64,000 bases of DNA from an uncultured delta proteobacterium (GTDB taxonomy: Bacteria; Desulfobacterota; Binatia; UBA9968), in the NCBI GenBank assembly GCA_963847445.1, contig CAWJZV010000046.1:320001-384000 (forward strand), read 5' to 3'. Below are positions 13,489-50,080 of this stretch, piece by piece. A model generated the notes under the pieces. It saw only the letters and a list, made by a program, of their open reading frames with translations, searched no databases and was not told the DNA's origin. The position numbers were made by a program, and so were the translations under genes. Positions within the stretch are counted from its first letter, which is position 1. The number at the start of each line of letters is the position of its first letter.

Positions 13489-14013
13489 TTAACCGCAAAG
13501 GACGCAAAGAACACAAAGTAAAATGACGGAACTAGAAATCAAAGCACTTATGTGATCGAGTTGTGCGGCAAACCGCGTACGACATTCACATATATCTTGG
13601 CACATGGTCACCTGGAGAAAGTTTATGAGAACGCTCTTGTCCATCGACTTCGGAAGGCTAGAATTAATGTGAATCAACAACATCCCCTCAGCGGTTGTCG
13701 ATGAAGATGGGACTTCTTGGGTGAGTATTTTGCGGATTTGTTGGTCGAAGATGTTTTGATCGTCGAGCTGAAAGGGCGCGAGTCACTGGCCGCTGAACAC
13801 GAAGCGTCAAGTTCTGGCGTATTTACGTCGGAGCTAAACTTGAACACGGCTTTACTTATCAATTTTGGTTCGCCAAAGTTCGAAATCCGAAAGTTTGCAC
13901 TGGTCAAAGCTCGCCGATGACATCAACTCATTACTAGAAAAGCTACGTTAGTCGAGTGTCGCTGACTTTCAGATCTGCCACATTTTTGCGTTCTTTGCGT
14001 TCTTTGCGGTTAA
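13489..14013. mobile_element. Candidate small element: 29-bp terminal inverted repeats of 9-bp CGCAAAGAA units around a GxxExxY gene
   Basis: Left ttaaccgcaaaggacgcaaagaacacaaa (13489-13517); right tttgcgttctttgcgttctttgcggttaa (13985-14013); 27/29 complementary; interior more AT-rich than flanks. Confidence 0.7.
13523..13920 (+). CDS. GxxExxY protein (PD-(D/E)xK nuclease superfamily); several frameshifts
   Basis: Reconstructed across frames: HGHLEKVYENALVHRLRKA, GEYFADLLVEDVLIVELK and LLINFGSPKFEIRK; may be a true pseudogene given the number of breaks. Confidence 0.85.
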
Positions 14014-14025
14014 CAATCCTTTTCT

Positions 14026-15147
14026 TCATTCGAAGTTATACATTCGCGCGCAGTTGTCCCAGAGCCATTTGCGTTTCATCTGTTCGGTGAAGGGTTGCTC
14101 CAGGAAGGTGTCGATGGCGTGGGGATATTTTACGTCTAGGTGCGGGTAGTCGGTGGAGAAGACCATGTTGTCTTCGAGGCCGTACTCGGGGATGTGTTTG
14201 GCGGTGACCTCGTCGCACTCCACGGCGCCGTAACAATTGCGCTGGAAGTATTCCAGCGGCGTCATCGTCAAATCCGGATATTCCGCCACGCCGGTGGTCT
14301 CGGCGTATTCGCCCATGCGCCACAGGAGCCAGGGCACCCAGGAACAGTTGCCTTCCAAGAACGCCACTTTCAGTTTGGGGAAGCGTTCCATGACGCCGCC
14401 GAAGATCATGTCGCCGCAGGCGAGCATATTCGCAAATGGAAAGCCGAAGGTGTTGAACATCGAGAAGGTCGAGCAGATGTGGAAGAACGCCGGCTGGGGC
14501 AGATAGACCCGGCCGGCTTCGTGGAAGCCCACCGGTAAATTCAACTTCTCGCACTCGGCCCAAAGCGGATCGTAGTAGGGGTCGCTCCATTTCTTGTTGT
14601 TGACATGATTGGGCCGGATAAAGATGCCGCGGAAACCGTATTCTTTCACGGTGCGGCGAATCTCTTCGATCGATCCGCTGATATCGTGCGGAGCGACCAT
14701 GGCGACGCCGAACATGCGCTTGGGGTCAGCCTGGGCGAAGTCGTGCAGCCAGTCGTTGTAAGCGCGGGCGATGGCGGTGGCGAAGTCGGGGTCGAGACCG
14801 TCGATGCCGAGTGCGGTGAGCGCCCGGGTTGGAAACAGAAAGGCGATATCCAGACCTTCTTTATCCATGGCTTGGAGTTGCGACACGCCGTCGAAGTTGC
14901 GTTTGCCGGCTTCGCCATATTTCTCATCGAAAAAGTCTTGACGGTATTTCGCCAGGGCGGGGTTTTCCGGCTGGCGCGGGATCGGCAGGACTTTGCCGTC
15001 GACCTCGATGCCGAGATCGCGGAAGGCGCGGTTCAATCCCTTGGGCGCGCGGTCGAGGTATTTTTTATCGATGTAGCGCTGCCATAGATCGGCGGGCTCG
15101 AAGACATGCATGTCGGAATCCATCGCTTTAAAACCGTTCTTGGCCAT
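14026..15147 (-). CDS. Amidohydrolase family 2 protein
   Basis: MDSDMHVFEP, RAYNDWL, YDPLWAECEKL, GVMERFPKLKVAFLE, FSTDYPH and DNCARMY. Confidence 0.9.
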   Translation of the reverse strand: MAKNGFKAMDSDMHVFEPADLWQRYIDKKYLDRAPKGLNRAFRDLGIEVDGKVLPIPRQPENPALAKYRQDFFDEKYGEAGKRNFDGVSQLQAMDKEGLDIAFLFPTRALTALGIDGLDPDFATAIARAYNDWLHDFAQADPKRMFGVAMVAPHDISGSIEEIRRTVKEYGFRGIFIRPNHVNNKKWSDPYYDPLWAECEKLNLPVGFHEAGRVYLPQPAFFHICSTFSMFNTFGFPFANMLACGDMIFGGVMERFPKLKVAFLEGNCSWVPWLLWRMGEYAETTGVAEYPDLTMTPLEYFQRNCYGAVECDEVTAKHIPEYGLEDNMVFSTDYPHLDVKYPHAIDTFLEQPFTEQMKRKWLWDNCARMYNFE

Positions 15148-15216
15148 TCTGTTTCTCCTTAAGTTAGATGGTGATTCAGGTTTGTTTGGACAGTGTGTTA
15201 GGTACGCGTGTTTGGT

Positions 15217-15294
15217 TCACCACGAAGGCACGAAGAGCACGAAGGTCGGAATAATATTTCCCAAACCTTCGCGTCCTTCGCGCCTTCGTGGTGA
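15217..15294. repeat. Empty inverted-repeat element of CACGAAG 8/9-bp units
   Basis: tcaccacgaaggcacgaagagcacgaaggt - 18 nt - accttcgcgtccttcgcgccttcgtggtga; outer 13 bp perfectly complementary. Confidence 0.9.
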
Positions 15295-15325
15295 GAAGTT
15301 CTTCACAGTAAACCTGGGAGTACGA

Positions 15326-16399
15326 TTATTGCACCGGCGATAAATACTTCAGCTCTTCCTTCATCTTGGGCGGCAGCGACAGCACTTCGTCAACCCACTT
15401 TTCGCATTCTTCGCCGGAGACGTAGTTGATGTCGAGTTTCAACTTAGCGGCTTGGGCGAGGAAATCGCCGTCGGCCAAGGTCGCCTTGAAGGCGCGCCGG
15501 AGGATTTCCAAGCGCTCTTTCGGCGTGTTGGGCGCAATAGTGAACGGGCGCGAGTATTCCATCTGCGCCATGTAGGCGCGATAGGCGCGCAGGTGATTCT
15601 CGTCTTTGATCGCCTCGCTGACGAGGGTCACGCCTTTCGCTTCAGCTTCGGGCACGCGGGCGTGCAGGATGAACGGAATCAAACGGTCGTCGCCTTTGCC
15701 GTCGAGCAAGTCCTTTTGCGTCGCCAAGATCGAGTCCCAGTTGGTGCAGTGGCCGTCGACCTCGCGGCGCTGCAAGGCGATCTTGATTTGCGCCGTGCCC
15801 TGGTAGCCCGATACCACGGCGAACTTGCTGCCGAGGGTTTTATTTAGCAAGAGCGGCATGTCGATGCTGTGCGAGCCCGGTCCAGTGCCGCCCATGCGCA
15901 GCGGTTTGGCCGATTTGACGATCTCGTCCATGGTCTTCGGCCCGGCGAAACCCATCACCAGGCATACCGGCACGCTCTTGCTCGGCGCGCCGAGCCAGCC
16001 GAACTTGCGCGCGTCGAACTTGACGTTGCGATCGCCCATCGCCTGATTGAAAACCAGCGCGCTGTTCCACATGCCGACGGTCAAGCCGTCCGGCTTGGCG
16101 TTATTGAAAATATAATTGGCCGCCACCAAGCTGCCGGCGCCGGTCATGTTGTCGGCCACGGTGGTCGGCCCGCCGGGTATATGTTTGCCGATGTAGCGCG
16201 CGATGGTGCGCGTGTAAGTATCGTAGCCGCCGCCGGCCGCCTGGCCGACGATGAAGCGAATGGTTTTGTCTTTGTAGAAATCTTGAGCGAGAGCCGGTTG
16301 AAGATTCGCCAGCAACAGCGACAGCCCGAGCGAACGCGCGACCAAAGCGCGGGAATTGGCCAGAAATTGGCTTTTCGAACCTAGCTGTCTGGATATCAC
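15326..16399 (-). CDS. Bug/TctC family substrate-binding protein
   Basis: QDFYKDKTIRFIVGQAAGGGYDTYTR, NMTGAGS, KPDGLT and SGYQGT. Confidence 0.9.
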   Translation of the reverse strand: MISRQLGSKSQFLANSRALVARSLGLSLLLANLQPALAQDFYKDKTIRFIVGQAAGGGYDTYTRTIARYIGKHIPGGPTTVADNMTGAGSLVAANYIFNNAKPDGLTVGMWNSALVFNQAMGDRNVKFDARKFGWLGAPSKSVPVCLVMGFAGPKTMDEIVKSAKPLRMGGTGPGSHSIDMPLLLNKTLGSKFAVVSGYQGTAQIKIALQRREVDGHCTNWDSILATQKDLLDGKGDDRLIPFILHARVPEAEAKGVTLVSEAIKDENHLRAYRAYMAQMEYSRPFTIAPNTPKERLEILRRAFKATLADGDFLAQAAKLKLDINYVSGEECEKWVDEVLSLPPKMKEELKYLSPVQ

Positions 16400-16640
16400 A
16401 AACGGCCTCCGTGGCTTATACCATGTCTCTCTTGTGGCGTCTTTGAAATAGTAATCAACAAATCGGCATGAAATTTCAATAGTTCACGTGGATTACCGCG
16501 TGCCCGTGAATGACGAAAAAGAAAAAGTTGACTTCAATTGCGGCGCATTCTTGTGGCACCGCCTGCCATAGTTTAGTCTAAAAGTAAGAGATTCTTCGCC
16601 TGCGGTTCTTGTGCAGTTGTCGCCAGCGGGAGGGTATACG

Positions 16641-17301
16641 ATGAAAACTCGACTAATTTTGTTTGCTGATTGCGGTATTTGCGCTGTTCTCTGTGGCGAC
16701 TACCGTGCATGCCACCATGCAGGACGATGTCGACCAGGCGTTATCGATTATCGAGCGTTTTGGCGAGATCCCGGAGACGGCGATTCCGCCGGCGGTCATG
16801 CGCGACGCCAAGGGTGTGGCGATCTTCGCCATGACCAAAGCCGGTTTCGTGGTCAGCGGCAGGGGCGGAACGGGAGTTGTCCTGGCGCGCACGCCGACGG
16901 GTTGGAGCGGTCCCTCGGCGATCGGTACAGGAGGCGTCGGAGTCGGCTTCCAAGCGGGGGTGCAGGTCACCGAGCACGTGATGATTCTCAACACTCCGGA
17001 GGCGATCAAGGCTTTCACACAAGGCACCAATTTTACACTCGGGGCCAATCTAAGCGTCGCGGTGGGTCCGGTCGGTCGTTCAGCCGAGGCCGGTGTCGCG
17101 CCAAAGGCCGCGATATACACTTACAGCCGCAGCCAAGGAATTTTTGCCGGAGTGTCCCTGGAGGGCACGGCGGTTGCCACCCGCTATGAAGCGAATGAGG
17201 AGTTTTACGGCAAGCCGGTCTATCCGGCCGATATTCTTGAGGGTAAGATTACGCCGCCGGCGAGTGCGCAGAAACTGTTGGATGCGCTGGCGAAATACTG
17301 A
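16641..17301 (+). CDS. Lipid-binding SYLF (Ysc84) domain protein (frameshift in signal peptide)
   Basis: AIPPAVMRDAKGVAI, KAGFVVSGRGGTGV, WSGP and YTYSRSQGIFAGVSLEG; RBS ggaggg before ATG 16641. Confidence 0.9.
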
Positions 17302-17360
17302 CTCCGCCGCTGATCCGAGTTGTCAGGGATAAGCCGGTTGCGGGATGGATCATTCGATGG

Positions 17361-17697
17361 CTCGGATATTTCTCCCGCAAAGGCGCAAAGGCGCTAAGTG
17401 ACGGGGCAAGGCCCGTCATCCGAACGGCAACGGAGGGATTAAGAGAGATTTCTCCCTTCGGTCGAAATGACATGATGCTCTTGTCTACGTGCTTTTGCTC
17501 TGCTTGGGCAAATTTCCCGGTGATCTAAAATGCTCGAACACGGGGATTGACTCCCGCCAAGGCGCAAAGTACGCCAATTTCGGAATCGTTGTCATTTCGA
17601 CCCTTGGGAACTTTCTCGATCCCTCGTGTCCCCTCGGGATGACGGGCATCGCCCGTCACCTTTGCGGCCTTGGCGACTTTGCGGGAGATATTCCGAG
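17361..17697. repeat. Long imperfect inverted repeat with ~110-bp composite arms
   Basis: 17361-17471 ctcgga..tctcccgcaaag..gtgacggg..gcccgtcatcc..gagggat..ggtcgaaatgac is mirrored by 17591-17697. Confidence 0.85.
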
Positions 17698-17762
17698 GTT
17701 CGGTTGCGACGCGGGCCGTGCTGCGCTGTCGTTTTGTTGCGAAGCTTGATACAAACGACGGC

Positions 17763-19058
17763 GTGCAAGCTTTGTCCGACTCTGAACCGCCCATCAAACC
17801 TGCGAAGTTTTTCTACGGCTGGACCATTGTCGCCGTCGGTTTTCTCGCGCATATCGCCTCCGCTTTTACGATTTCGAGCACGCTCAGTGTCTTTCTCAAA
17901 CCGTTGTCGAGCGATCTTGGCGTCTCGCGCGGTGTCTTTTCCCTGGTTCGCTCGGGCGAAGTTCTGATCGGCGCCGTGGCCGCGCCGCTCGTCGGCACGC
18001 TGCTGGATCGTCACGGTTGTCGTGGACTCATGGCCGCAGGCGGGGTTATCGCGGGGCTGGGCTTGCTGCTGCTCGGCCAGGTGCGGGATTTTTGGCAGTT
18101 TCTCTTGGTCCGCTGGCTGATTCTCAGTCCTGGCGACACGCTCATGGGGAACATGGTTGTGAACGTGACGATCTCGCGCTGGTTCATCCGCATGCGCGGC
18201 CGCGCCCTGGCGTTCGCGGGCATGGGCCACGGCCTGGCCAAAGTATTGATGCCGCTGTGCGCCGCGTCGCTGATCGCCTACGCTGGCTGGCGCGGCACCT
18301 GGGTGGTATTCGGCCTGTTAACCTTGACGTTGGTGGTCGGACCGTCGCTGCTGTTCATGCGGCGAAGTCCTGAGGACCTGGGTTTGCTTCCAGACGGAAA
18401 ATTGGCCGCCGACAATGACAGCGGCGGGGTGAAAGCGGATGGCAAGAATAAGAAATCCAATCGAGCTGCAACCGACGACGTCGAGTGGACGCGCGGCGAA
18501 GCGCTGCGCACGCCGGCTTTCTGGCTCATCGTCACGACTTTCGGCGTCGCCCATATCGGCGTCAGCGGGCTCAATCTGCACGTCTTCTCCTTCGTCAGCG
18601 ATCAAGGCCATCCGGCGACGGTCGCTGCCCTAGTCATGAGCACCATCGCGATCATGCAGTTCAGCACGCCGATCGTCTGGGGGTTGTGCGCCGAGCGCAT
18701 CAGCATCGGCCGGGTCATCATGGCCAAGTTCGTGATTCAAGCCGCCGGGATTTCCTTGGCTCTGTCTGACCCTGGGTTGGTTTCCCTCTATGCCGGGTTT
18801 TTTCTATATGGCATCGGCATGGGTGGAACGTCGATACTGGCCGAATTGATCTGGGCCAACTACTTTGGCCGCGTTTCCCTCGGCAAGATTCGCGGTTTAG
18901 GCTCCTTGGTCACCCACGGCTTCAGCGCCGGCGGCCCGCCGTTTTTCGGTTTTCTCTTCGACGCCACGCAAAGTTATATGCTGTCGTTCACTATCTTCGT
19001 CGGCCTGCTGATCGTTTCAGCGGTGCTGAGTTTGTTCCTTCGGCCGCCGACGAAGTAG
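17763..19058 (+). CDS. MFS transporter (OFA/MCT-like)
   Basis: FFYGWTIV, GTLLDRHG, SRWFIRMRGRALA, ALRTPAFWL and multiple TM helices; start uncertain because upstream ORF extension runs through repeat DNA. Confidence 0.9.
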   Translation: MQALSDSEPPIKPAKFFYGWTIVAVGFLAHIASAFTISSTLSVFLKPLSSDLGVSRGVFSLVRSGEVLIGAVAAPLVGTLLDRHGCRGLMAAGGVIAGLGLLLLGQVRDFWQFLLVRWLILSPGDTLMGNMVVNVTISRWFIRMRGRALAFAGMGHGLAKVLMPLCAASLIAYAGWRGTWVVFGLLTLTLVVGPSLLFMRRSPEDLGLLPDGKLAADNDSGGVKADGKNKKSNRAATDDVEWTRGEALRTPAFWLIVTTFGVAHIGVSGLNLHVFSFVSDQGHPATVAALVMSTIAIMQFSTPIVWGLCAERISIGRVIMAKFVIQAAGISLALSDPGLVSLYAGFFLYGIGMGGTSILAELIWANYFGRVSLGKIRGLGSLVTHGFSAGGPPFFGFLFDATQSYMLSFTIFVGLLIVSAVLSLFLRPPTK

Positions 19059-19096
19059 AGGTGTTGGCAAATACGAAGTTCGCTTTCCAGAAATCG

Positions 19097-19562
19097 TTAT
19101 TGGCGCAAATCGTCTTGTTGTAAAAGTCTGCGACCCTGCGCTTTGCAGACCCTTTCTCTTCGCGAACCGGTCGTAAATAAACCGAGCGCTACGAAAGCCG
19201 TACCTACAAGAAACGTCAACTTCAAGATAATCTCAACGCGATAAAGTAGCTCATCGATAGGAGTTGCTTCGATCCCATCATTGGAAAGCAATGTCAGGTA
19301 TGACTTTCCTAGGCGTCCCATAAAAAGTGTGTGAAAAATCTCGGCGATGGCAGGACCTGCTTTATTTGCACGGCTTAGAAATTTGATCAACATGATTACG
19401 TTGATTGATATTGCGCCGGCGAATCCGAAGATAGTGAGATTTACACCCCAAGTTTAACATTGTTTATTTTATGGCCTTTCCACAGGAAAAGGCTCTTAGC
19501 TCTTGTCGCCCCAGATGGGCGTAGACCGGTGTGATAGTTTGTTTGACCGGGGCAAGCGCCAT
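19097..19562 (-). CDS. AT-rich hypothetical membrane protein (frameshifted or degraded)
   Basis: 98-aa ORF 19097-19393 with TM segment; further hydrophobic coding upstream in other frames; low GC. Confidence 0.35.
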
Positions 19563-19673
19563 GGTCAATCCTACGCTTCTACTCGATTCTGTTAAATTCC
19601 GCCGTTTCCATATTGGTGGTCAAGAAAATTAGCGTCAAGTATTTTATTTTTGTCCTTCTGTATACTTAGTGCT

Positions 19674-20000
19674 TCACGCTACGCGTTTGCGGAGGGGTTG
19701 GACGGTAAGCTGCATTCCCATGGCGCGGAGCACAGCCCTCAGGCTTTTCAGTTCCGGATTGCCTTTCGACGAAAGCGTGCGGTAAAGGCTATTGACGTTC
19801 AACTCGGCATCTTGGGCGAGTTTCTGTACGCCGCCAAAAGCTTTGGACATACGGCGCAGCGCGAGCATTAATTCTGCTTGGTCGCCATCTTTGAGTATGG
19901 AGTTCAAATACTCAGCTGCGAAAACCGGGTCTTTGCGAAAACTTTCTATCGTTGCCTCTTCATGGCTGCGGGATATTGCTGATTTTGATTTTCGGCTCAT
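19674..20000 (-). CDS. Addiction module antidote (HigA-like HTH antitoxin)
   Basis: AEYLNSILKDGD...ALRRMSKAFGGVQKLAQDAELNVNSLYRTLSSKGNPELKSL; ATG overlaps toxin stop (ATGA). Confidence 0.9.
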   Translation of the reverse strand: MSRKSKSAISRSHEEATIESFRKDPVFAAEYLNSILKDGDQAELMLALRRMSKAFGGVQKLAQDAELNVNSLYRTLSSKGNPELKSLRAVLRAMGMQLTVQPLRKRVA

Positions 20001-20317
20001 GGCTTCCTCCGCTGGTAGTCGCGCCAATGCGAAACGGCTTGTTTTATGTCCGCCTCCTGCGTGCGTTTTGAGCCGCCACAAAGCAAAAGTACGACGGCCG
20101 TTCCCTCCCGGGCGTAATACACTCGGTAGCCAGGACCCAAGTCGATTTTCAATTCCCAGACCCCTGCCTGACAGAATCTGTGATCGCCAAAATTCCCGGC
20201 TTCTAACCGGTCAATTCGTCGCTGAACGACAACTCTCCCTTTCATATCTTTGAGATCGTCAAGCCACTGTTGATACGGGTCGTTACCCGAGGCAGTGAGA
20301 TAGTGACGTATTTCCAC
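19997..20317 (-). CDS. Addiction module killer (RelE/HigB-like toxin)
   Basis: RIDRLEAGNFGDHR, GVWELKIDLGPGYRVYY and LLLCGGSKRTQEADI. Confidence 0.92.
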   Translation of the reverse strand: MEIRHYLTASGNDPYQQWLDDLKDMKGRVVVQRRIDRLEAGNFGDHRFCQAGVWELKIDLGPGYRVYYAREGTAVVLLLCGGSKRTQEADIKQAVSHWRDYQRRKP

Positions 20318-20321
20318 TTGA

Positions 20322-20352
20322 GCAATTTTAGCTTATAAGCGAATAATTGCAA
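20322..20352 (-). promoter_or_regulatory. Sigma70-like promoter with overlapping palindromic operator for the TA operon; probably leaderless
   Basis: Minus strand TTGCAA-16-TAAAAT then 7 nt to the GTG; palindrome gcaatt..gcttataagc..aattgc. Confidence 0.6.
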
Positions 20353-20590
20353 GCCGAAAGCGTGGAGGAGTGAAACAGCGAGAAGTGCAGCTCCCATCTC
20401 AATTCATTTTTACCGGTCGTTTCCCTTCGTTACCAATCCCACCTGCTGCCGATTATCTCGAAGTCGTCCAATATTGGACAGACTGCCTTACCGAGTCAGC
20501 GTATAATTTTTATGTAGTCCGAAACGGCGGGTTCGCGAGGGAAAAGTTACTAATCGCGGCAATTGTTGACGGTTAGCGAAAGGCTGTTGC

Positions 20591-20866
20591 ATGTCCCAAT
20601 ACAAAGGTCATCCCATTTACGGGATTGGAGTCCGTGGCGCGGGGAAAGAATGGCATTGCCGGGGTTTGATATTTAGCTCCGAAGATAAGGTGACGGAGCT
20701 CAAAAAATTGGACTGCGCCGAATTAACTTTTAAGACAAGAAGCAAAGCCGAAGCGCACGCGCTCAAACTATGTGAAAAATGGATCGATCTGCAAAGCGGG
20801 GAAATCGAATCAAGCAGTCCTATCAAGTCGGTGCCCGTGAAAGATCGTACGCTCGCGATGGGGTGA
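20591..20866 (+). CDS. Hypothetical protein, 91 aa
   Basis: ORF with RBS-like aagg; globular alpha/beta-like composition; no family recognised. Confidence 0.55.
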   Translation: MSQYKGHPIYGIGVRGAGKEWHCRGLIFSSEDKVTELKKLDCAELTFKTRSKAEAHALKLCEKWIDLQSGEIESSSPIKSVPVKDRTLAMG

Positions 20867-20927
20867 TATCCAATCGGCCGCCTTGAGTTTATTTCTCGAC
20901 CTGTCATACCCGCTTCTCCGCCACCCC

Positions 20928-20952
20928 AGGGCGTATAGCAATACGCCCCTAC
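20928..20952 (-). repeat. GTAG-type REP hairpin
   Basis: Minus strand gtaggggcgtattgctatacgccct. Confidence 0.7.
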
Positions 20953-21092
20953 GTCGGACTGCCCTCAAGATTCGTTGCATTCATCGCGGTAACCCTCCGC
21001 TTGTGATTCTCTTCTGGTTGCGCGACTCGCCCCCGATTGACAGTAGCGCATCATAAAGTATAGCTAAATTCGTGACCGAATAAGGAGATGAC

Positions 21093-22079
21093 ATGAAAAC
21101 TAGGTCGTTCGTTATTGTTTTGCTATTGCTGGGCGTTGGGACGTTGACTGAGCGGTGTTTTGCCAAGGATCGGCTGGTTATCGGTTACACGGCGATCACC
21201 GGTATCAAAGCCGGGCTTTGGGTCGCGGAAGACGCGGGGATTTTCGACAAGCATAATATTCAGGCTGAGCTGCTGTTGGTCACTTCGGCATCGAAAATGG
21301 TGCAAGCCATGCTCGGCGGCGATGTGCCGTTCGCGGCGGCGGGCGGCAATGCGGCTGTCGATGCCAATCTCGCCGGCGCGGATATGGTCATGCTCGGCGT
21401 ACTGGCCAAAGTCCCGGCGTTTTACATCATGGCGCTGCCGGAGATTAAAACTATCGAAGACTTGCGCGGCAAGCCGGTGGGGGTGACGCGCTTCGGTTCG
21501 TCCACCGACTTCACCATGCGCTATCTTCTGCGCAAGCATGGCCTGAATCCCGACCGCGATGTGACGATGATCCAGGCGGGCGATTTGAACGCGGCGGCGG
21601 CGATGCTCAAGACCAAGGCGATCTATGCGGCGCCGTTCTCAAGCCCGGCCAATCTACGGGCGCAGGAGGCCGGTGCCCGCTCGCTGCTCAACATGGGCAC
21701 CGCCGGCGTCTATTTCCCGCACGATGCTTTGATGGCCCGCCGGGCGTTTATCAATGGCAATGAAGATTTCGTCCGCCGGGCGACCCGGGCCTATTCGGAA
21801 GGGGTGCATCGCTTGTTCACCGATCCGGCCGCGGGGAAGCGCGCGGTACGGAAGTACGCGCGCACCAGCGATGCGAAAATCGTCGATGCGGTCTATCAAT
21901 ACGCCATCGATTACATCGAAAAGATTCCTTACAACTCGCGCGAGGCGGTGCAGGAAGTTTTGAATCAAGCGGCGGTGCGCAATCCCAAGGCGAAGGAAGC
22001 CAAGCCGGAAAGTTTCTACGACGACAAGTATGTCCGCGAGTTGGATAGTCAAGGGTTTTATAAACAACTGTGGAAATGA
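21093..22079 (+). CDS. ABC transporter substrate-binding protein, NMT1/SsuA-like
   Basis: RBS aggag; signal peptide; IKTIEDLRGKPVGVTRFGSSTD; RELDSQGFYKQLWK. Confidence 0.9.
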   Translation: MKTRSFVIVLLLLGVGTLTERCFAKDRLVIGYTAITGIKAGLWVAEDAGIFDKHNIQAELLLVTSASKMVQAMLGGDVPFAAAGGNAAVDANLAGADMVMLGVLAKVPAFYIMALPEIKTIEDLRGKPVGVTRFGSSTDFTMRYLLRKHGLNPDRDVTMIQAGDLNAAAAMLKTKAIYAAPFSSPANLRAQEAGARSLLNMGTAGVYFPHDALMARRAFINGNEDFVRRATRAYSEGVHRLFTDPAAGKRAVRKYARTSDAKIVDAVYQYAIDYIEKIPYNSREAVQEVLNQAAVRNPKAKEAKPESFYDDKYVRELDSQGFYKQLWK

Positions 22080-22081
22080 AC

Positions 22082-22131
22082 TGGAGCGATGGAGTGTTGG
22101 AGTAATGGAGGATTGAGGATCGAGGATGGAT
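22082..22131 (+). repeat. Solo arm: 8-bp TGGAGTnn units joined to 7-bp TCGAGGA units
   Basis: tggagcga tggagtgt tggagtaa tggagga ttgagga tcgagga tggat. Confidence 0.8.
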
Positions 22132-22180
22132 TTGCGAAATTGGCGGCGCGAACGTCGATAATCGCCATGGAGGATAGATT

Positions 22181-23697
22181 ATGAAACGGCTGTTATTGGG
22201 ATTGCTGCTTCTGACCGTTTGTACTGGTGGCCACGCTGCGCCATTCCGGCGCGGCGGAGACGCGCATCTCCATCGGCGTGACCGAGACCATGGACACTTT
22301 CAATCCTTACGCCGACAGCGTTTCTTTGATGTATAGCGTCTGGTGCCAGGTGCTGGGCTGTCTCGGTACCTATGATTTCGACAAGGGGCAGCATGTCGGC
22401 TTGGTGCTGGAGCGCTGGGAAGTCAAGGATCCCAACAACTGGTTGTTCCATGTGCGCAAGGGGCTCAAGTTTCATAACGGCACGCCGGTGACCGCCCATG
22501 ACATCGTCCACTCCATGGGCCGGACGCGCAAGGACCCGCAGAGCAAGCAGACCCAGAACATTGCGGCGGTGGCGAGCGAGAAGGCGCTCAACGACTACAC
22601 CGTTCAAGTCACGACGAAAATTCCGACGGCGCCGTTGCTCGATTATCTCTTCGACCGGATCATCGTCACCAGCAAGGATCTCTACGACAAGCATGGCGCG
22701 GAAGTGGCCGACAAGCAGTATCCCTTCGGCGCCGGACCGTACAAATTTCGCGAGTTGATCCCCGGACAGCGTCTGGTGATCGGCAAAGACAAATCCCATC
22801 CGATGTGGAAACAGTATCCGCAGGCGCCCGATGAAATCGTTTTTCGCATCATGCGCGAACCGGAGCAGCGGGTGACGGCGCTGCTGAACAACGAAATCCA
22901 GATCGCCCAGTTCGTGCCGCCGCATCTGCGCGAGCGGGTCGAGCGCAGCGCCAATCACAAGATCGTTAAATTTCACACCGCTGAGCTGATGTTCCTGGCG
23001 ATGATGCCGAAGGTCAAGCCTTGGGATAACAAGCTAGTGCGCCAAGCGGTGGCCTACGCCATCGACCGGGATACGATCATCAAGACGATTTTGCGCGGCG
23101 AAGCGTCGCGCCTCGACGGGCCCGATTGGCGAAGGCCAATATGGCTACGATCCTAATCTCAAGCCGAAGTACACTTACAATCCGGAGAAGGCCAAAGAGT
23201 TGTTGAAACAAGCCGGCTATCCCAACGGCGTCGACGTCGAGCTGCAAACTCCGGTGGGTCGCTACACGCTGGACAAGCAATTGAGCGAAGCGATGATCCC
23301 CATGCTCAACGCCGCAGGTTTCCGCGCCAAGCTGGCGACGCCCGAGTGGGCGACCTTGTGGGCCAATGTGCAAGTGGGCAAGGTGCCGTTTTACTACATG
23401 GGCCGGGGCGGTGTCGTCGACCCCAGCGCGGCGTTGGCGCAGTACTTCGAAACCGGCGGCTCGCCGCGCATCGGCTACTCGAATCCCAAGGTCGACGAGT
23501 TGTTGAAGCAGGAACGGCAAACCTTCGACCCGGCCAAACGCAAGAAAGCCTTGGCCGAGGCGATGAGCGTCATCACCGACGAAGCACCGGCGCATTTCCT
23601 CTGGCGCCATCAGTTGCTCTTCGGCATGGCGAAAAACGTCGACTACCGGCCGCTGCCGAGCGAGCGGATCTTCGGCTGGAATATGAAGGTGAAGTGA
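22181..23697 (+). CDS. ABC transporter substrate-binding protein family 5 (peptide/nickel; frameshifted)
   Basis: RKGLKFHNGTPVTAHD, GAGPYKF, VRQAVAYAIDR, AKELLKQAGYPNG and YSNPKVDELL. Confidence 0.9.
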
Positions 23698-23708
23698 GAG
23701 GGGAAGAA

Positions 23709-23825
23709 TGGAGTGATGGAGTAGTGGAGTAGTGGAGTGTTGGGTGGGCCGAGGATCGAGGATGGATGATGGTAGTGGCGGTCGGGTCGCGGTCTTTTCC
23801 ATTACTCCAACACTCCAGTACTCCA
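23709..23825. repeat. Inverted-repeat element of 8-bp TGGAGTnn units with an internal 7-mer arm
   Basis: tggagtga tggagtag tggagtag tggagtgt ... cgaggatcgaggatggatgatgg ... ccattactccaacactccagtactcca. Confidence 0.9.
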
Positions 23826-23889
23826 ATTTGCTCCATGACCATGTCGCAGTCTAATTGCGCATACTTTCGAGTAAGCAAAAGGATCATCG

Positions 23890-24528
23890 ATGTCTATTTT
23901 GAAGAGTCAGGTCGTGGCGAAAAACTCGGGCGCGGCGTTTGAAGTGTTGAAAGGGCAGCGGATACGGATCGCGGGGCGGAGTATTGTCGACTTCGTGGCG
24001 TTCAATCTGCGCGATTTGACCGAGCGTTTCGATCAGGCGCGGACCAAGACCAATCAGGTGAAGATCTTTATCAGCACCGGCGACGTTCTCTATTCGAAAA
24101 GAAACAATCCGATGATGACCATCGTTGCCGATACGTTTGCCGAAGGGCGCCATGACTTGCAGAAGGGCATGTGCAGCCGCAAGCGATTCGAGATGGTGGC
24201 CCAGGGGCAGTCGAAACGGGTGTTCGCCGAAGGCGTCGATATCAATCCCAAGACGGCGGAGGAGATTCCGACCCATGGTTGTTGGGAGAATTTGAGCGGG
24301 GCGGTGCAGCCGTGGAATATTACGCCGGACGATGTGCCGAGTCCGTTCAATATCTTTCAGTGCATGCGCATCGACCCCGACACCGGCGTGATGTACGACA
24401 CCATGATCCGGCCCAAGGATGAGGCCCATGTGGATTTTCGCGCCGAGATGGATTTGCTGGTGGCCGCCAGCGCTTGTCCGGAGTCGGGCCGCGGGCAGGC
24501 GATCCGGGTGGAGATTTACGACGAGTAA
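23890..24528 (+). CDS. Urea carboxylase-associated family protein (DUF1989)
   Basis: VDFVAFN, HDLQKGMCS, HGCWENL, PSPFNIF and FRAEMDLLVAASACP. Confidence 0.88.
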   Translation: MSILKSQVVAKNSGAAFEVLKGQRIRIAGRSIVDFVAFNLRDLTERFDQARTKTNQVKIFISTGDVLYSKRNNPMMTIVADTFAEGRHDLQKGMCSRKRFEMVAQGQSKRVFAEGVDINPKTAEEIPTHGCWENLSGAVQPWNITPDDVPSPFNIFQCMRIDPDTGVMYDTMIRPKDEAHVDFRAEMDLLVAASACPESGRGQAIRVEIYDE

Positions 24529-24538
24529 TCGGAGATTT

Positions 24539-24676
24539 GGCCGCAAAGAACGCAAAGTTCGCAAGTCACCACGAAGTGCACGAAGATCACGAAGGTGAGG
24601 ACTAATTGATTCCGAACTTCGTGTCCGTCGTGCCTTCGCGGTGACGAGGAATTTGCGTGATCAGAGCAATCTGGTG
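24539..24676. repeat. Composite of CGCAAAG arm and CACGAAG inverted element
   Basis: ggccgcaaagaacgcaaagttcgcaa + gtcaccacgaagtgcacgaagatcacgaag ... cttcgtgtccgtcgtgccttcgcggtgac. Confidence 0.85.
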
Positions 24677-24685
24677 AAAGGCAAT

Positions 24686-25862
24686 ATGGCAGGAACAACT
24701 TTTACTTTTAACAATCCCCATGTCGAGCGGGTGATCTCGGGGCAGGGCTCGTTGGGCAAGTTGGCGCGAGGAAGTCGAGCGGCTGGGCGGCACGCGGGCG
24801 CTGGTGTTGATCTCGCCGTCGGTGGCGAAGACCTTTCTCTTGGACAAGGTTAAAGCCGGGCTCGGCGGTAAATGCGTGGCGGTGTTCGATCAGGTGAAGC
24901 CGCATTCGCCGACGGAGTCGATCGAAAAGGCGGTGGAGCTGGCGCGGGGTGCGAAGATCGACATTCTGGTCAGCGTCGGCGGTGGCAGCGCCATCGACAC
25001 CGGCAAGGGCGTGGCGGCGCTGTTGGCCGAGGGCGGTGCGCTGCCGCGTTTCGGTGTGCGCTTCACGCCGCCGAACAAAAAAGAAGTGCCGCCCATGCCG
25101 GCGCCGAAAATCCCTCACATCGCGATTCCGACGACTCTCTCCGGCGGCGAGTACAGTTACTCCGCCGGCATCACCGAGGGCGGCAAGAAATTCATCGTCG
25201 CCGATCCCAAGCTGGCACCGAAGACGGTGCTGCTCGATCCCGAAGCGGCGGCGACCGCGCCCGGCCGTTTGCTGGCGGCGTCGGGCATGAATTCGCTGGC
25301 GCACTGCGTCGAAGCGGTTTATTCCACTGAGACCCAGCCGCTGACGGAGGCGTATTGTCTTACCGGTATCGGTTTGCTCGCGCGTTACCTGCCGCGGGCG
25401 GTGGCGGATTCATCGCTGATCTCGAAGCGCTCAGCCATGTCCAGGTGGCGGCGTGTTTGTCCGGCATGGGTGTTTACAGCGCCTGGACCGGCATCCATCA
25501 CGCCATCGTCCATGTCATCGGCGGGCGCTACAAAGCGCCGCACGCGGAAATTCACGCCTTGATGTTGCCCTACGGCATGCGCTGGAATTTGGATGTGGTC
25601 GCAGCGCCATTACCTGCGGATGGCGCGGGAGATCGGCATCGAAGCCGCGAACGAAAAGGAATTGGCCGCCGCCGTGCCGGAATACGTCTACGGCATGAAT
25701 CAAAAAATGGGCCTGCCGCTCAAGCTGCGCGATCTCGGCGTGCCGCGCGATGGCTTGAAGCAGTTGTCGGTGGATACGCTGGGCGATTACAGCATTCACA
25801 CCAATCCCAAACCGGTGCGCAACGCGGAACAGGTGCTCGAGGTGCTGGAAGCGGCGTGGTGA
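24686..25862 (+). CDS. Iron-containing alcohol dehydrogenase family (maleylacetate reductase-like; frameshifted)
   Basis: VSVGGGSAIDTGK, IAIPTTLSGGE, GMNSLAHCVEA, GIHHAIVH, PHAEIH and NPKPV. Confidence 0.88.
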
Positions 25863-25913
25863 GGTGAATGGATTTGTTTTTATCTCTCGCAAAGGCGCAG
25901 TACCGATGGTACG

Positions 25914-26024
25914 TCACGCCGGTGAAAACCGGCTCCGTCTTCGTTGCGAATTAGCGGCGGAAAATCCTGCATACCTGCCCTCGCCCGGATCAGGTACCGG
26001 GGCGATGCTCTAGCCGGTAAGACG
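25914..26024. repeat. Degenerate GTCAY-type REP-like element
   Basis: gtcacgccggtgaaaaccggc ... cccggatcaggtaccgggg ... ccggtaagacg. Confidence 0.45.
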
Positions 26025-27803: not shown

Positions 27804-27806
27804 AAG

Positions 27807-30752: not shown

Positions 30753-30899
30753 TACTATCCGTGATACATTTGGCGCGGCTTGGGCAAAGCCTCTCGATGC
30801 GCCAAATCCGAGAGGGCGGGTTTCAACCCCGCCCCTACGACTCCCAATTCTTTTTTGCGCCCTTTGCGTTCTTTGCGGCCATTCTTCTTTTCGGTTGCG
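30753..30899 (-). repeat. Dispersed ~140-bp composite repeat, copy 2 (contains GTAG REP)
   Basis: Reverse complement matches 12289-12418; includes gtaggggcggggttgaaacccgccc. Confidence 0.9.
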
Positions 30900-31967: not shown

Positions 31968-32018
31968 TGGGTGTCCTGACTTCTAAGGAAAATGCGATTC
32001 CGAATATCGATTCGAAAG

Positions 32019-32087
32019 ACGCAAAGTTCGCAAAGGAAAGCAAAACGAGTTTTCCGAACTTGGCGTCTTTGTGCCTTTGCGATGAGA
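32019..32087. repeat. Empty inverted element of CGCAAAG family
   Basis: acgcaaagttcgcaaaggaaagcaaa ... cttggcgtctttgtgcctttgcgatgaga. Confidence 0.75.
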
Positions 32088-41247: not shown

Positions 41248-41292
41248 GATAGCAATGGTGGGTTCTCCTTCACGCTCGGGCTAACGAAAAAA

Positions 41293-41367
41293 GGAGTAAT
41301 GGAGTGTTGGAGTACTGGAGTGATGGGGGAAGACCAACACTCCAATACTCCATTATTCCATCACTCC
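41293..41367. repeat. Empty inverted element of 8-bp TGGAGTnn units (4+4)
   Basis: ggagtaat ggagtgtt ggagtact ggagtgat gg - gggaaga - cc aacactcc aatactcc attattcc atcactcc. Confidence 0.92.
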
Positions 41368-47516: not shown

Positions 47517-48563
47517 ATGTACAATGGTCCGGTGATCGATGCCGACGGGCATGTCTTGGAGAAAGAAAAATATATCCGCAAGTATCTCGAAAAGCCCTGG
47601 GACAAGCGCTCGACGGCGCTGCGCACGCGCGATCAACCCTGGGATGCCAATCTGTTCGATAGTTTCGAGATGGCGGTGCGCTGGGAAGACTTGTCGCCCA
47701 AGCAGCAGATCGACGAGTGGCATGCGGCGATGGATCGCGAGGGCATGGAGTACGCGATCTGTTTTCCCACCGGTTCGGGCAATGTCTCGAAGCTCCAAGA
47801 GTTGGACTTTGCCCTGGCCATCGCGCGCGCTTCCAACACGCAGTTCGCCAAGGAGTTCAACGCGCACTCGAACCGGGTCAGTTGCGTCGGCGTGCTGCCG
47901 CTGCGCGATCCGCAAAGCGGCGGCAGAGGAGCTGCGCCGCGGCGTGACCGAGCTGGGGTTGAAAGGGTTCGAGATTCTGCCGATGGGATTGCCGATGGCG
48001 CTCGGCAGCACATTTTACGATCCGGTCTATGCCGAGGCGGAGAAACTCGGCGCGGTCATCGGTATCCACGGTTCGCGCAGCAACTCCCATGAACTGGGGG
48101 CCGACAAGTTATCGACCTTTGCCGAAGTGCATTCGTACGCATTTACGGTCGGCCTGTTGCTGCAGTTTACTCATGTCGTCTGCCAGGGTGTGCCGATTCG
48201 TTTCCCCAATTTGAAATTGGCCTTCTTGGAGATCGGCGCCACCTGGCTGCCGTATTATTTGGACCGATTGGATGAGCACTGGGAAAAACGCGCCAAGCAG
48301 GAGATGCCGCTTGCTCAAAGAAAAACCCAGTGATGTCGTGCGCAAGTCGAAGATGTGGTTCAGCCTCGAATCCGGCGAGTCGCTGTTGCCGGAGGCGGTC
48401 AATTACCTCGGCGCCGAACATTTTCTTTACGCCTCGGACATTCCCCACTGGGACAATGAGTTCCCTGGCAATCTTACACGCGTTGCGCAATCATCCGCGC
48501 ATCAGCGACGCCGACAAAGAAAAGATTCTCTACAGCAATGCCAAACAGCTGTTCAACTTGTAA
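47517..48563 (+). CDS. Amidohydrolase family 2 protein (frameshifted)
   Basis: VIDADGHVLE, YDPVYAEAEKL, RFPNLKLAFLE, ASDIPHWD and NAKQLF. Confidence 0.9.
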
Positions 48564-48591
48564 CTGCCTTGCCGGTATCGAGGAGCCTGAG

Positions 48592-49587
48592 ATGAAGATT
48601 CGCGCAGTTCTAACCATTCTCTGGTTAATCGCCGGCGTGATTGTGCCTGTGGCCGCCAGGGCGGCGGATAAACTGGTGGCGCTGTACTCGGCCCACGCGG
48701 TGCCGTACTCGATGCCCTGGGTTGCCGAAGAGCTCGGGTTATTCAAGAAACAGGATATCGATTTCGACTTCGTCTATATTCCTTCATCTTCAACCGCTAC
48801 AGCGGCGATTCTCGGCGGCAATGTCGAAATCGGGCTCTTGGGCGGCGTCGGTATCGTCAATGCTTTCGTCAGTGGCGCGACCGACTTGGCTTTCATCGGC
48901 AGCATCAAGAACATCATGACGCAGAGCATTTTGGCCAAGCCGGAGATCACCCGGCTCGAACAGTTGCGCGGCAAGCGCATCGGCGTCACGCGCATTGGCA
49001 GCAACACCCATTATTTCACGGTCCAAGCGTTTCGCCGCGCGGGGATGAATACGGATAAGGACATCACGTTCATCCAGACCGGCGGCGAAGCGGAAACCGT
49101 CGGCGCGCTAATGTCAGGGCGGATCGATGCCGCGACGCTGTTGCCGCCGAGCGACGGCAGAGCGCTGGCGCTGGGCTTTCGCTATGTCGTGTTCGGCCCG
49201 GATATTGGAATTCCTTACGCCGCTTCGACCATCGCGACGCGGCGCTCGCTCATGGCCAAGCGCGGCCCGGCGATCGGTCGATTCATGCGCGCTATGGCCG
49301 AAGCCTCAAGAGCGATGCACCGCGATAAAGAATTGGTCTTCCGGGTGATGGAGAAAAAACTGCGGATCAAAGATCGCGCGGTGTTGGAAGCCAGTTACGC
49401 CATCGAAATGAAAGTCATGGAACCGCGGCTGGAAATGAAAGCGCCGGCGCTCCAGCCGATGATCGAAGAAGTCGCCCGCACCAATCCGCGCGCCAATGAG
49501 GTCAAGCCCCAGGAGATGATGGACCGGCGCTATTTGGCGGAGATGGAGAGCAGCGGATTCTTCAACCAGCTGTGGGGGAAAAACTAG
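48592..49587 (+). CDS. NMT1/SsuA-like substrate-binding protein
   Basis: RBS gaggag; signal peptide; LEQLRGKRIGVTRIGS; EMESSGFFNQLW. Confidence 0.88.
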   Translation: MKIRAVLTILWLIAGVIVPVAARAADKLVALYSAHAVPYSMPWVAEELGLFKKQDIDFDFVYIPSSSTATAAILGGNVEIGLLGGVGIVNAFVSGATDLAFIGSIKNIMTQSILAKPEITRLEQLRGKRIGVTRIGSNTHYFTVQAFRRAGMNTDKDITFIQTGGEAETVGALMSGRIDAATLLPPSDGRALALGFRYVVFGPDIGIPYAASTIATRRSLMAKRGPAIGRFMRAMAEASRAMHRDKELVFRVMEKKLRIKDRAVLEASYAIEMKVMEPRLEMKAPALQPMIEEVARTNPRANEVKPQEMMDRRYLAEMESSGFFNQLWGKN

Positions 49588-50080
49588 AAATTCAAAATGA
49601 AAAAGTAAAAATTAACAATTGAAACAGGAGCAAGAAATGCCGCGTATATCGACGCCGACCAAAATTACCGATAGAACGTTTGGCTTTGCAATTAACGTTG
49701 TTGAGATATGCCAAGTGCTCGATTTGCAGCCTGGGGTAAGGCGGACGTTGAGCCGGCAGTTGCTTCGCTCTGGCACCTCGGTTGGAGCCAACATCGAAGA
49801 AGCGCAAGCTGGTCAAAGCAAGGCTGATTTTATTAGCAAATGTTCGATCGCGTTGAAAGAATGCCGAGAGACGGCTTATTGGTTGCGGCTTTTGGATGCT
49901 TGCCGACTTTATCACGGTGAAATGCTCAACCCATTGCGCCGAGAAGCAGACGAACTTTGCCGTATTCTCGCTACGATTGTTCTCCGTGCAAAACAGACCA
50001 AGGTTAAGGTGTCATGATATTTTACACGGAATTCCTATTGCCGATCTTAATTTTGCCTTATTAATTTTTACTTTTTAATT
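49588..50080. mobile_element. Candidate small element: AT-rich 7-mer inverted arms around a four-helix-bundle gene
   Basis: Left aaattcaaaatgaaaaagtaaaaattaa; right ttaattttgccttattaatttttactttttaatt; 49600-49615 perfectly complements 50061-50076. Confidence 0.7.
49637..50017 (+). CDS. Four helix bundle protein (23S rRNA IVS protein / Avd-like family)
   Basis: RBS aggag; RTFGFAINVV, QLLRSGTSVGANIEEA, SKADFISK and ALKECRETAYWLRLL. Confidence 0.92.
   Translation: MPRISTPTKITDRTFGFAINVVEICQVLDLQPGVRRTLSRQLLRSGTSVGANIEEAQAGQSKADFISKCSIALKECRETAYWLRLLDACRLYHGEMLNPLRREADELCRILATIVLRAKQTKVKVS

Follow-up and report, generated by a model that had tools for sequence, protein, structure and literature searches.

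Inverted rows of short tandem units around GxxExxY and four-helix-bundle genes in an uncultured delta proteobacterium: a candidate class of very small selfish cassettes

We describe here two small genes located in a window of 64,000 nucleotides (nt) from an uncultured delta proteobacterium (G000:C46:320001-384000, G000 being the genome under study; GC content about 58%), each of which lies between a pair of inverted arms made of short units repeated in tandem. One gene belongs to the GxxExxY family and the other to a four-helix-bundle family, and we shall call a gene together with its two arms a cassette. An earlier, sequence-only reading of the window had claimed that these two genes of about 125 codons share one architecture, and inverted arms of tandem 7-9-nt units are indeed present at both. 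It had also placed both between convergent host genes, correctly so, since the neighbours are xth(+) and an amidohydrolase(-) for the GxxExxY cassette and an NMT1-type binding protein(+) and an amidohydrolase(-) for the four-helix-bundle cassette. The claim that both are distinct in composition stands for the first (GC 0.506 at 13001-14000, against 0.582 and 0.574 in the adjoining kilobases) and falls for the second, which at 0.546 barely differs from its surroundings. Comparisons were made with 25 congener genomes (G-labels), forming with G000 a set of 26 genomes that are all related and some of which are incomplete.

The arms of the GxxExxY cassette are complementary to each other at 89% of their 35 nt; 467 nt lie between them, and each carries three CGCAAAG/CACAAAG units with a period of 9. 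The gene matches both TIGR04256 and PF13366, as two pieces in different frames. TIGR04256 scores 39.5 bits on the second piece (cut-off 35) and 70.5 bits on a read-through containing one TGA, and PF13366 scores 36.2 and 25.3 bits on the two pieces (cut-off 22). The xth, MutL-like, SBP_bac_5 and amidase genes of the window are also split into overlapping or adjacent open reading frames, or ORFs (12715-13474, 7509-8944, 22227-23694 and 55894-57142), a pattern more suggestive of assembly indels than of pseudogenes, and for this reason the frame break at 13552-13920 may be an error of the assembly as well.

The four-helix-bundle gene (49619-50017) is intact and well recognised, by TIGR02436 at 92.7 bits (cut-off 24) and by PF05635 at 78.1 bits (cut-off 33.8; E 7e-22), and its protein has a sequence relative of determined structure, PDB 2rld (E 5e-21). 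Its A-rich arms have a period of 7 (0.77), and a wider pairing of 48 nt at 71% complementarity, with its left side at 49582-49629, surrounds the pair listed in Table 1. The cassette is also present at this site (49577-50088) in G003; G004 (C5) and G014 (C29) have instead 1.7-3.2 kb of other DNA, with what appear by eye to be cytochrome c genes, so that the difference there exceeds the cassette.

The same arrangement recurs well beyond the window. G000 contains 3 GxxExxY and 11 four-helix-bundle genes, and 10 of these 14 are bracketed by inverted tandem-unit arms, each pair with a unit sequence of its own. In the genus, an inverted pair scoring at least 14 was found at 31 of 40 four-helix-bundle loci (score 11-13 in 5, none in 4) and at 24 of the 29 GxxExxY loci whose arms were read, out of 49 listed matches (score 10-13 in 3, none in 2, one of which is at a contig end); G005 contributes four loci and one row to the genus tables, and nothing rests on it alone. 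Four-helix-bundle genes occur in 82 of 151 genomes of the phylum, and in a sample from it periodic arms were present at 21 of 27 such loci, against 0 of 27 shuffled flanks. Relatives of the GxxExxY gene are found in at least 599 places distributed over many phyla, two archaeal records included. From these, 80 loci were collected with a profile of the genus family, to which their proteins are 53-71% identical; their sources are Desulfobacterales, Pirellulales, Omnitrophota, Gammaproteobacteria, Acidobacteriota, Verrucomicrobiota, Chloroflexota, Bacteroidota, Chlamydiota and the two archaeal records. Stieleria tagensis (L087), Ramlibacter sp. Leaf400 (L147) and Horticoccus sp. (L153) are among the named isolates that carry a cassette.

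Cassettes may lie close together. Six four-helix-bundle matches are found within 22 kb in G031 (C13:1773819-1795873), several four-helix-bundle genes and one GxxExxY gene within 83 kb in G015 (C11:202362-285021), and in G000 itself (C27:90100-91700) a GxxExxY and a four-helix-bundle cassette occupy successive junctions of one kinase/regulator operon.

Which units the arms are made of depends on the gene that they enclose. By eye, nearly all GxxExxY arms of the genus belong to a single class, CRYVRAG, with a period of 8-9 (CACGAAG, CGCAAAG, CACAAAG, CACAGAG, CACGGAG, CGCAGAG, CACGAAA and AACAGAG), and the units of four-helix-bundle arms are many others, mostly of 7 nt (AGGCAAT, GGGTAAG, GTTCAA, ATTCCAA, GGTGATN, TCGTAAA and more). 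A locus was counted if its 200-nt flanks, available for 78 of the 80 cross-phylum loci, contained a minimum of two forward units upstream and of two inverted units downstream; by this measure CRYVRAG arrays were found at 65 of these 78, most densely 20-60 nt from the gene, and at 23 of 28 GxxExxY loci of the genus, versus 0 of 67 four-helix-bundle loci. The unit type also follows the tree of the GxxExxY proteins: it changes label 11 times, when shuffled labels change 17.1 times on average and 0 of 200 shuffles give so few changes, a contrast that is overstated to the extent that related genomes and orthologous loci share labels. Two earlier expectations, that arms are enriched around these gene families and that their unit sequence is specific to the cargo, are thus borne out, the first of them from the single genome to the comparison across phyla.

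The build of the arms is equally regular. Wherever at least three units could be parsed on each side, their number is exactly 3+3 at 36 of 42 gene-bearing loci and in all 40 gene-less CACGAAG hairpins of G000 (see below). The cores of the units are 95% identical between the two arms of gene-bearing loci and 98% between those of gene-less hairpins, whereas the 1-2-nt spacers match in 54% and 31% of positions, to be compared with 45% and 44% for arms taken from different loci; spacers differ freely between copies, and left and right arms have the same pattern. A plain stem does not account for such arms, because the cores match and the spacers do not, when a structure maintained for pairing only would keep its spacers paired, and because the same unit word has been kept from Planctomycetes to Acidobacteria. 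They look more like rows of sites, and the view that a long stem is what matters, as first proposed, is weakened.

Many cassettes are also very compact, with 0-3 nt separating the third unit from the ATG and 2-15 nt separating the stop codon from the right arm, so that the arms must be transcribed along with the gene. In our reading of the sequences, the second unit with its spacer (GAAGGA) would occupy the position of a ribosome-binding site. The unit word also appears inside the gene, the invariant His-Glu-Ala of the GxxExxY protein being encoded by CAY GAR GC, which reads as the arm unit CACGAAG (13795-13805 in the window; also loci L085-L164). Motif matches inside 78 GxxExxY genes number 112 in the forward and 20 in the reverse direction. 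This is probably a coincidence of codons, and could also hint at the origin of the arms.

Comparison of orthologous sites between congeners indicates turnover. At the xth/amidohydrolase site, an intact cassette with GGCC-CGCAAAG arms is present in G003, G007 and G009, a cassette related to that of the window, with CACAAAG units in both arms, in G004, and one with the gene inverted in G014 and G012; G002 has kept 178 nt, in which the gene is reduced to its first ~60 nt between the two arms, G008 has a plain hairpin of 92 nt, and G015 has an unrelated small gene. Full, internally deleted, hairpin-only and absent forms thus all exist at this site, where the sequence-only reading had suggested looking for full, empty and absent alleles. 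The flanks of G000 and G003 are 93-96% identical there and their cassettes 74%, and those of G003 and G009 are 78-86% identical and their cassettes 84%; as the likeness of the cassettes disagrees with that of the flanks, cassettes have been exchanged at a fixed position.

A second case is the kinase/response-regulator site corresponding to C27:90.1 kb, which is occupied by a CACGAAG-type cassette in G003 and G008 and by a CGCAAAG-type cassette of period 8 in G007, G035, G031 and G015, the proteins of the two types being ~43% identical. G000 has at this site a left arm of the period-8 CGCAAAG type and a right arm of CACGGAG/CACGAAG units; windowed comparisons place no clear breakpoint in this chimeric cassette, its left 80 nt agreeing at 92% with the period-8 CGCAAAG type and the remainder being ambiguous. 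Likewise, seven genomes have a GxxExxY cassette at C46:305.1 kb, where G000 has a TGGAGT hairpin, and the site at 32018 of the window has a different occupant in each of four genomes: a CGCAAAG-like hairpin (G000), one of CACGAAG units (G014), one of GTTCAA units (G004) and a composite of 435 nt (G003). Gene-less hairpins are present or absent between genomes that are ~88-92% identical over the aligned window, and the homology between non-orthologous loci is limited to ~455 nt, that is, to the gene and both arms. At fixed intergenic sites by the 3' ends of genes, then, cassettes come and go, change orientation and replace one another.

Gene-less copies are numerous. If a tandem-unit block is defined as one 5-mer occurring three times at a spacing of 7-11, G000 contains 1270 blocks, versus 167 in the shuffled genome, and these form 199 inverted pairs, 77 of them with a loop of 20-30 nt. 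Under strict rules 150 hairpins remain (GTTCAA 65, CACGAAG 40, TGGAGT 33, CGCAAAG 5, CACAAAG 1, others 6), of which 134 are outside crude gene calls, their median distance to the 3' end of a gene being 14 nt; they are rarer than expected between divergent genes (11 of 134, versus 740 of 4368 gaps). The motif CACGAAGNNCACGAAG, which represents the CACGAAG word pair, occurs 4-481 times per genome in the 26 congeners, when reversed-pattern controls occur 0-1 times; G000 has 232 copies and its close relative G004 has 28. Genomes in which more GxxExxY genes were found tend to have more copies (Spearman correlation 0.71; 0.65 per Mb), a value overstated by the relatedness of the genomes, so that the link is suggestive only. 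The median count is 250 in the 9 genomes having a gene with CACGAAG or CACGGAG arms and 28 in the other 17, and the five genomes lacking any GxxExxY match have 4-36 copies.

We think, with a probability of about one half, that a class of tiny selfish cassettes with non-autonomous derivatives is represented in the window by two full members and by gene-less relatives numbering about a dozen. We favour this hypothesis because it is the simplest account of the shared architecture, the cargo-specific units, the turnover at fixed sites and the link with copy number, although the mobility that it supposes is inferred from comparative patterns. A full cassette would be an element of ~430-540 bp, in which a single gene, 115-135 codons long, is enclosed by two inverted rows of sequence-specific units: in the GxxExxY type mostly three CRYRRAG-class units of 8-9 bp per side, behind an end of the form T(T/C)(C/A)AC, and in the four-helix-bundle type three to seven units, mostly of 7 bp, whose sequence would follow the clade of the protein. 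The arms would be the cis-acting recognition sites of the cassette's own protein, comparable to the multi-site terminal inverted repeats of transposons, and the copy numbers suggest that gene-less hairpins could multiply in trans when a cognate gene is present, in the manner of MITEs (miniature inverted-repeat transposable elements) or of the hairpin-forming doublets of repetitive extragenic palindromes (REPINs). By analogy with the intervening sequences (IVSs) of 23S rRNA, pairing of the arms in RNA would probably also restrain translation or allow RNase III to cut the cassette out of host transcripts. As for movement itself, our guess is that the PD-(D/E)xK protein cuts the arms, as duplex or as extruded hairpin, and that host repair or recombination then uses the arms as homology.

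Several observations weigh against this hypothesis. We found neither a movement event nor a target-site duplication, nor any clean boundary of insertion, the filled and empty sites of the relatives being too diverged for alignment at the level of the base, and no direct repeats are visible beside the 40 CACGAAG hairpins. Across the genus, synteny is kept at most of the loci that bear a gene, their proteins being 60-90% identical, which implies that movement is rare or consists mostly of replacement in place. Contigs from public sequencing runs (the best run containing 0.46 of the sampled words) gave no excision junction and, as they break at the hairpins, are uninformative about excision or circles; their depth is 10-20-fold higher in bins with hairpins, because these are multi-copy repeats, and their joints link the arms of different copies. 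Inside the CACGAAG hairpins is a TTCGGA/TCCGAA stem that is missing from full cassettes, and hence these hairpins are not simple deletion products. The earlier proposal of autonomous and non-autonomous pairs is supported in its testable parts and still a conjecture as to mechanism. Moreover, G000, with its 40 strict CACGAAG hairpins and 232 motif matches, has no gene with two CACGAAG arms, and G006 has such a gene and only 30 motif matches. The biases noted above in the tree and copy-number comparisons, and the share of the listed GxxExxY matches whose arms were read, count in the same direction, as does the folding of the four-helix-bundle cassette, whose RNA pairs its arms and yet folds no better than shuffled sequences (z -0.06). 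Finally, we know of no strand-transfer chemistry for a PD-(D/E)xK nuclease acting alone, nor of any catalytic activity for the four-helix-bundle protein.

In 13 GxxExxY proteins of the genus, the residues G19, E22, Y25, D62, E72, K74, H83, Q86 and Y90 are invariant, which fits an active PD-(D/E)xK site, and the predicted structure is confident (predicted local distance difference score, pLDDT, 95.9) and of that type. A Foldseek comparison of this model with the PDB gave no match at E<=0.001; the best rows were Cas4, lambda exonuclease and the archaeal junction resolvase Hjc, and the weak matches included the catalytic domain of a homing endonuclease, 3r3p. Since these are generic PD-(D/E)xK folds, no specific mechanism can be borrowed from them. 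When PDB sequences were searched with the GxxExxY profile, 0 matches came up at E<=1, and a prediction of a two-copy complex (score 0.00) gave no answer and weighs neither way. The entry for PF13366 in a survey of the PD-(D/E)xK superfamily gives its function as 'Unknown' and mentions 'multiple transfers' (PMC3424549), and our literature search found no known function for the TIGR04256 or TIGR02436 family. PF05635 proteins are described as resembling, in sequence and structure, the protein Avd of diversity-generating retroelements, or DGRs (PMC10053308), and the S23p protein of Xanthomonas is cited as a pentameric toroid (in PMC4990558).

One may go a step further and suppose that the two cassette types are branches of a single class of autonomous mobile elements, so far undescribed, which at ~430-460 bp would rank with the smallest known and in which an oligomeric protein reads the fixed row of units on each arm and movement or swapping proceeds through a hairpin or cruciform intermediate. 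That intermediate would be cut by the PD-(D/E)xK protein in the GxxExxY branch and handled by host enzymes in the four-helix-bundle branch. We regard this extension as tentative, and would sooner bet against it than for it.

The first alternative supposes that nothing counts in the arms except the stem of double-stranded RNA that they form, serving for excision by RNase III or for shutting off translation, that the two proteins have some unrelated task, and that the cassettes spread by ordinary recombination and gene transfer. This scenario accounts for arms that abut the start and stop codons and are transcribed with the gene, and for predicted folds in which the arms pair, that of the GxxExxY cassette beating 100 of 100 shuffles (z -4.06). 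It has a precedent in the IVS of Coxiella, described as an element of 428 nt with a terminal stem of 28 bp and an S23p ORF, cut by RNase III (PMC4990558). We consider it unlikely all the same, for it requires neither a GxxExxY unit sequence kept across phyla nor a unit number fixed at three, leaves unexplained why the spacers are not complementary when the cores are and why the copy number of hairpins tracks the number of genes, and receives no help from the z value of the four-helix-bundle cassette given above.

A second alternative is that of homing: the GxxExxY protein would be a small PD-(D/E)xK homing endonuclease that cuts gene-less or foreign arm pairs, repair over the ~30-bp arms would copy the gene in, and the hairpins would be spread by the host. 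The replacement of cassettes of one clade by those of another at the same site, the chimeric arms of G000 at C27 and the occupation of common sites by hairpins and cassettes are what one would expect of such a process, and the conserved catalytic D..ExK residues, together with the presence of 3r3p among the weak fold matches, agree with it. However, homing offers the hairpins no route to multiply, ignores the four-helix-bundle cassettes, which encode no nuclease, and does not provide for the inner sequences of CACGAAG hairpins that are missing from full cassettes; neither is there a known cleavage site. This makes it, in our opinion, quite improbable.

That the hairpins are instead palindromic, terminator-like or quadruplex-type elements serving host expression, with the small genes merely sharing their spacers, would agree with their position outside genes, close to 3' ends and seldom between divergent genes, with the synteny of many loci, and with the similar placement of the heptamer repeats of Xanthomonas and Nostoc, described as quadruplex formers (PMC4692102), but is very hard to reconcile with a unit class strictly tied to a cargo family, with arms and gene forming the unit of homology between unrelated loci, with copy numbers up to ~100-fold apart among congeners, with four hairpin types at one site in four genomes, with CACGAAG, GTTCAA and TGGAGT units devoid of G-tracts, and with a terminator scan (limited to loops of 3-8 nt) that called none of the hairpins and gave no excess over shuffled sequences.

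Returning to the hypothesis of selfish cassettes, we would say that they resemble RAYT/REPIN systems in their logic and ORF-bearing 23S IVSs in their build, and rate them as outside any described kind of element. The Coxiella IVS is given as 428-444 nt long, with a terminal stem of ~28 bp and one ORF, and ORF-bearing IVSs are characterised as sporadic, horizontally transferred and selfish, with a mobility that is unknown (PMC4990558). Like the IVSs of Coxiella, Leptospira, Brucella and Xanthomonas, our cassettes are small, with a terminal inverted-repeat stem and an ORF in the loop, and the single ORF of these IVSs belongs to PF05635, as does the gene at 49619-50017. Unlike them, the cassettes of the window lie between protein-coding genes and not in helix 9, 25 or 45 of the 23S rRNA, their arms are rows of tandem units, they have a second and unrelated cargo (GxxExxY), and many gene-less copies exist. 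The single 23S gene found in the G000 assembly (C45:180142-183148) contains no cassette, and its contig carries none of the 14 genes.

In RAYT/REPIN systems, too, a gene is flanked by inverted copies of a repeat that is dispersed as gene-less hairpin doublets, and the repeats, whose populations are tied to the gene, are located outside genes and near gene ends. The differences are that the cassette proteins are of PF13366 or PF05635 and not Y1 (HUH) transposases of the IS200/IS605 type, that three to seven tandem units of 7-9 nt take the place of a single palindrome, and that one genome contains several cassettes and unit families. Like MITEs, the gene-less hairpins are short, non-coding and bounded by terminal inverted repeats, are present at a site in one genome and absent from it in a close relative, and differ widely in copy number among congeners, and the G002 allele is an internal-deletion derivative of a full element as known for MITEs. 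The parent transposons of MITEs differ in what they encode, as a Pfam scan of 61 ORFs of the window found 0 transposases at E<=1e-5, in agreement with the initial claim, and the full element has only ~450 bp; target-site duplications were not seen, at sites too diverged between relatives for base-level alignment.

Short-period repeats between bacterial genes are not new in themselves, the short tandemly repeated repetitive (STRR) heptamers of cyanobacteria being one example. The closest to ours are the GGGNATC heptamers of Xanthomonas and Nostoc, described as intergenic, at most 50 bp from stop codons and preferring a small number of units, each Xanthomonas genome having 70-75 pairs in convergent (inverted) orientation (Rehm et al. 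2015, PMC4692102). They have in common with the cassettes the period of 7, the placement and the inverted pairs; the passages of that paper that deal with them interpret them as formers of G-quadruplexes and report no link with a mobile element or a gene family (PMC4692102). The units of the cassettes, by contrast, are without G-tracts (no GGG occurs in CACGAAG, CGCAAAG, GTTCAA, TGGAGT or AAAAGTA), go together with two gene families and undergo turnover from one relative to another. The resemblance of PF05635 proteins to Avd (PMC10053308) does not extend to the context, since the gene of the window is alone between its arms and a general Pfam scan of the 61 ORFs found no reverse transcriptase, DGR template and variable repeats not having been searched for. 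Intrinsic terminators differ as well: the scan of 12001-32000, restricted to loops of 3-8 nt, called no hairpin (31 calls in total, against 25.3 in shuffles, standard deviation 6.0), and there is no T-run behind the stems of the 40 CACGAAG hairpins.

Our search of the literature, in which older work on IVSs was thinly covered, brought up no account of arms built from tandem units at either gene family. What is new is the unit class common to GxxExxY loci across phyla, its absence at four-helix-bundle loci, the contrast between cores and spacers, the 3+3 rule, the exchange at fixed sites and the link with copy number. If both families are indeed the cargo of a shared design, they would represent a new selfish class with a testable protein-DNA code, in the case of GxxExxY three CRYRRAG units per arm. 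This would give 23S rRNA IVSs and short-period intergenic repeats (STRR, GGGNATC) a common origin, explain why two of the most widespread small 'hypothetical' families exist, and allow hundreds of intergenic hairpins per genome to be annotated as copies of an element and not as regulatory sites. Compact arms with a tiny nuclease may perhaps, and here we speculate, be of interest for sequence-specific DNA tools.

The features of the window are collected in Table 1, which includes about a dozen gene-less hairpins or solo arms of tandem units. The CGCAAAG dimer CGCAAAGNNCGCAAAG, allowing up to 2 mismatches, has 15 matches in the window, against 1.58 expected, and 0 of 100 shuffles reach that number. 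All the positions at which the sequence-only reading had noted arms recurring without a gene are correct, as are its four further unit families (GTTCAA, TGGAGT, GAGGAT and CACGAAG); nevertheless, 12304, 24539 and 30851 are solo arms and not hairpins. Its designation of such copies as empty derivatives also needs correction, in that 12304 and 30851 are parts of a composite repeat and the 17371/17667 pair encloses other repeats.

Table 1. Arms, genes and gene-less tandem-unit structures of the window (window coordinates)
Feature	Position	Strand	Remarks
GTTCAA hairpin, gene-less	2704..2808		four 9-nt units per arm, 39-nt loop; conserved in G003, G004
GTTCAA solo array	3716..3759		four units, partner not nearby
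AAGGCAAAA/AAAAGTA-type hairpin, gene-less	7426..7500 (approximate)		begins directly after a stop codon
CGCAAAG solo arm	12304..12331		three units; heads a ~110-nt composite repeat extending to ~12400
GxxExxY cassette, left arm	13483..13517		TTAACC + three 9-nt units (CGCAAAGGA, CGCAAAGAA, CACAAAG); inverted pair, 35 nt, 89%
GxxExxY / PDDEXK_3 gene	13552..13920	+	broken: two frames, 13552-13704 + 13717-13920
GxxExxY cassette, right arm	13985..14019		CTTTGCG units, then GGTTAA; partner of left arm
CACGAAG hairpin, gene-less	15217..15294		3+3 units; in G000, G014, absent from G003, G004
CGCAAAG arm pair, period 8	17371..17392 + 17667..17688		encloses 274 nt of other repeats, including units at 17553-17578
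TGGAGT hairpin	23725..23825		GAGGAT units nested in loop; absent from G004
CGCAAAG solo arm + CACGAAG hairpin	24539..24566 + ~24567..24643		abutting; hairpin absent from G003
CGCAAAG solo arm	30848..30877		inverted copy of the 12304 arm, 43 nt identical
CGCAAAG-like hairpin	32018..32082 (approximate)		different structure at this site in G014, G004, G003
TGGAGT hairpin	41286..41358		in G000, G003; absent from G004, G014
four-helix-bundle cassette, left arm	49596..49618		AAAAAGT/AAAAATT-type 7-nt units; 23 nt, 91%
four-helix-bundle gene (TIGR02436 / PF05635)	49619..50017	+	intact ORF; probable ATG at 49637 behind AGGAG
four-helix-bundle cassette, right arm	50058..50080		partner of 49596..49618
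TGGAGT hairpin	54772..54854		four units per arm; degraded in G004, G014

The composite repeat, of ~110 nt, consists of a CGCAAAG solo arm followed by a GGGGCGGG..GAAACCCGCC hairpin and then by TTGGCGCATCGAG. Two inverted copies, 18.5 kb apart, are found in the window (12290-12400 and 30790-30890), and inverted copies also surround an RNase H gene elsewhere in the genome (G000:C45:29921-30974). No Rfam family has a match within the window.

We looked for a third cargo family in G000 among arm pairs with long spacers and found none, as these enclose a glyoxalase-like ORF, LexA or RNase H, or are simply neighbouring hairpins. The nesting of hairpins in the loops of others is limited to a handful of cases and was rejected as a general rule. 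At two loci, L080 (G007:C180) and L064 (G035:C646), 2-3 gene-less CGCAAAG hairpins of period 8 stand in tandem just before a full cassette, and one of those at L064 retains the first ~25 nt of the GxxExxY gene. G000 also has other dispersed hairpin families, without tandem units, namely CGTCATACCGGCGCAGGCCGGTATCCA, CCCCCTTTGAAAAAGGGGG and GGGCGATTCATGAATCGCCCCTAC, with copies for example at C17:178962-179029, C4:66798-66881 and C2:86784-87437.

Two further regions of the window may be mentioned. A small ORF at 27807-28091 (-) matches the TumE toxin family (PF20126, E 4e-17) and is presumably part of a toxin-antitoxin pair, and the stretch from 19000 to 21000 has a GC content of 0.48-0.51, against ~0.58 for the window, and contains two ORFs (19097-19390 and 19792-20250) without a Pfam match.

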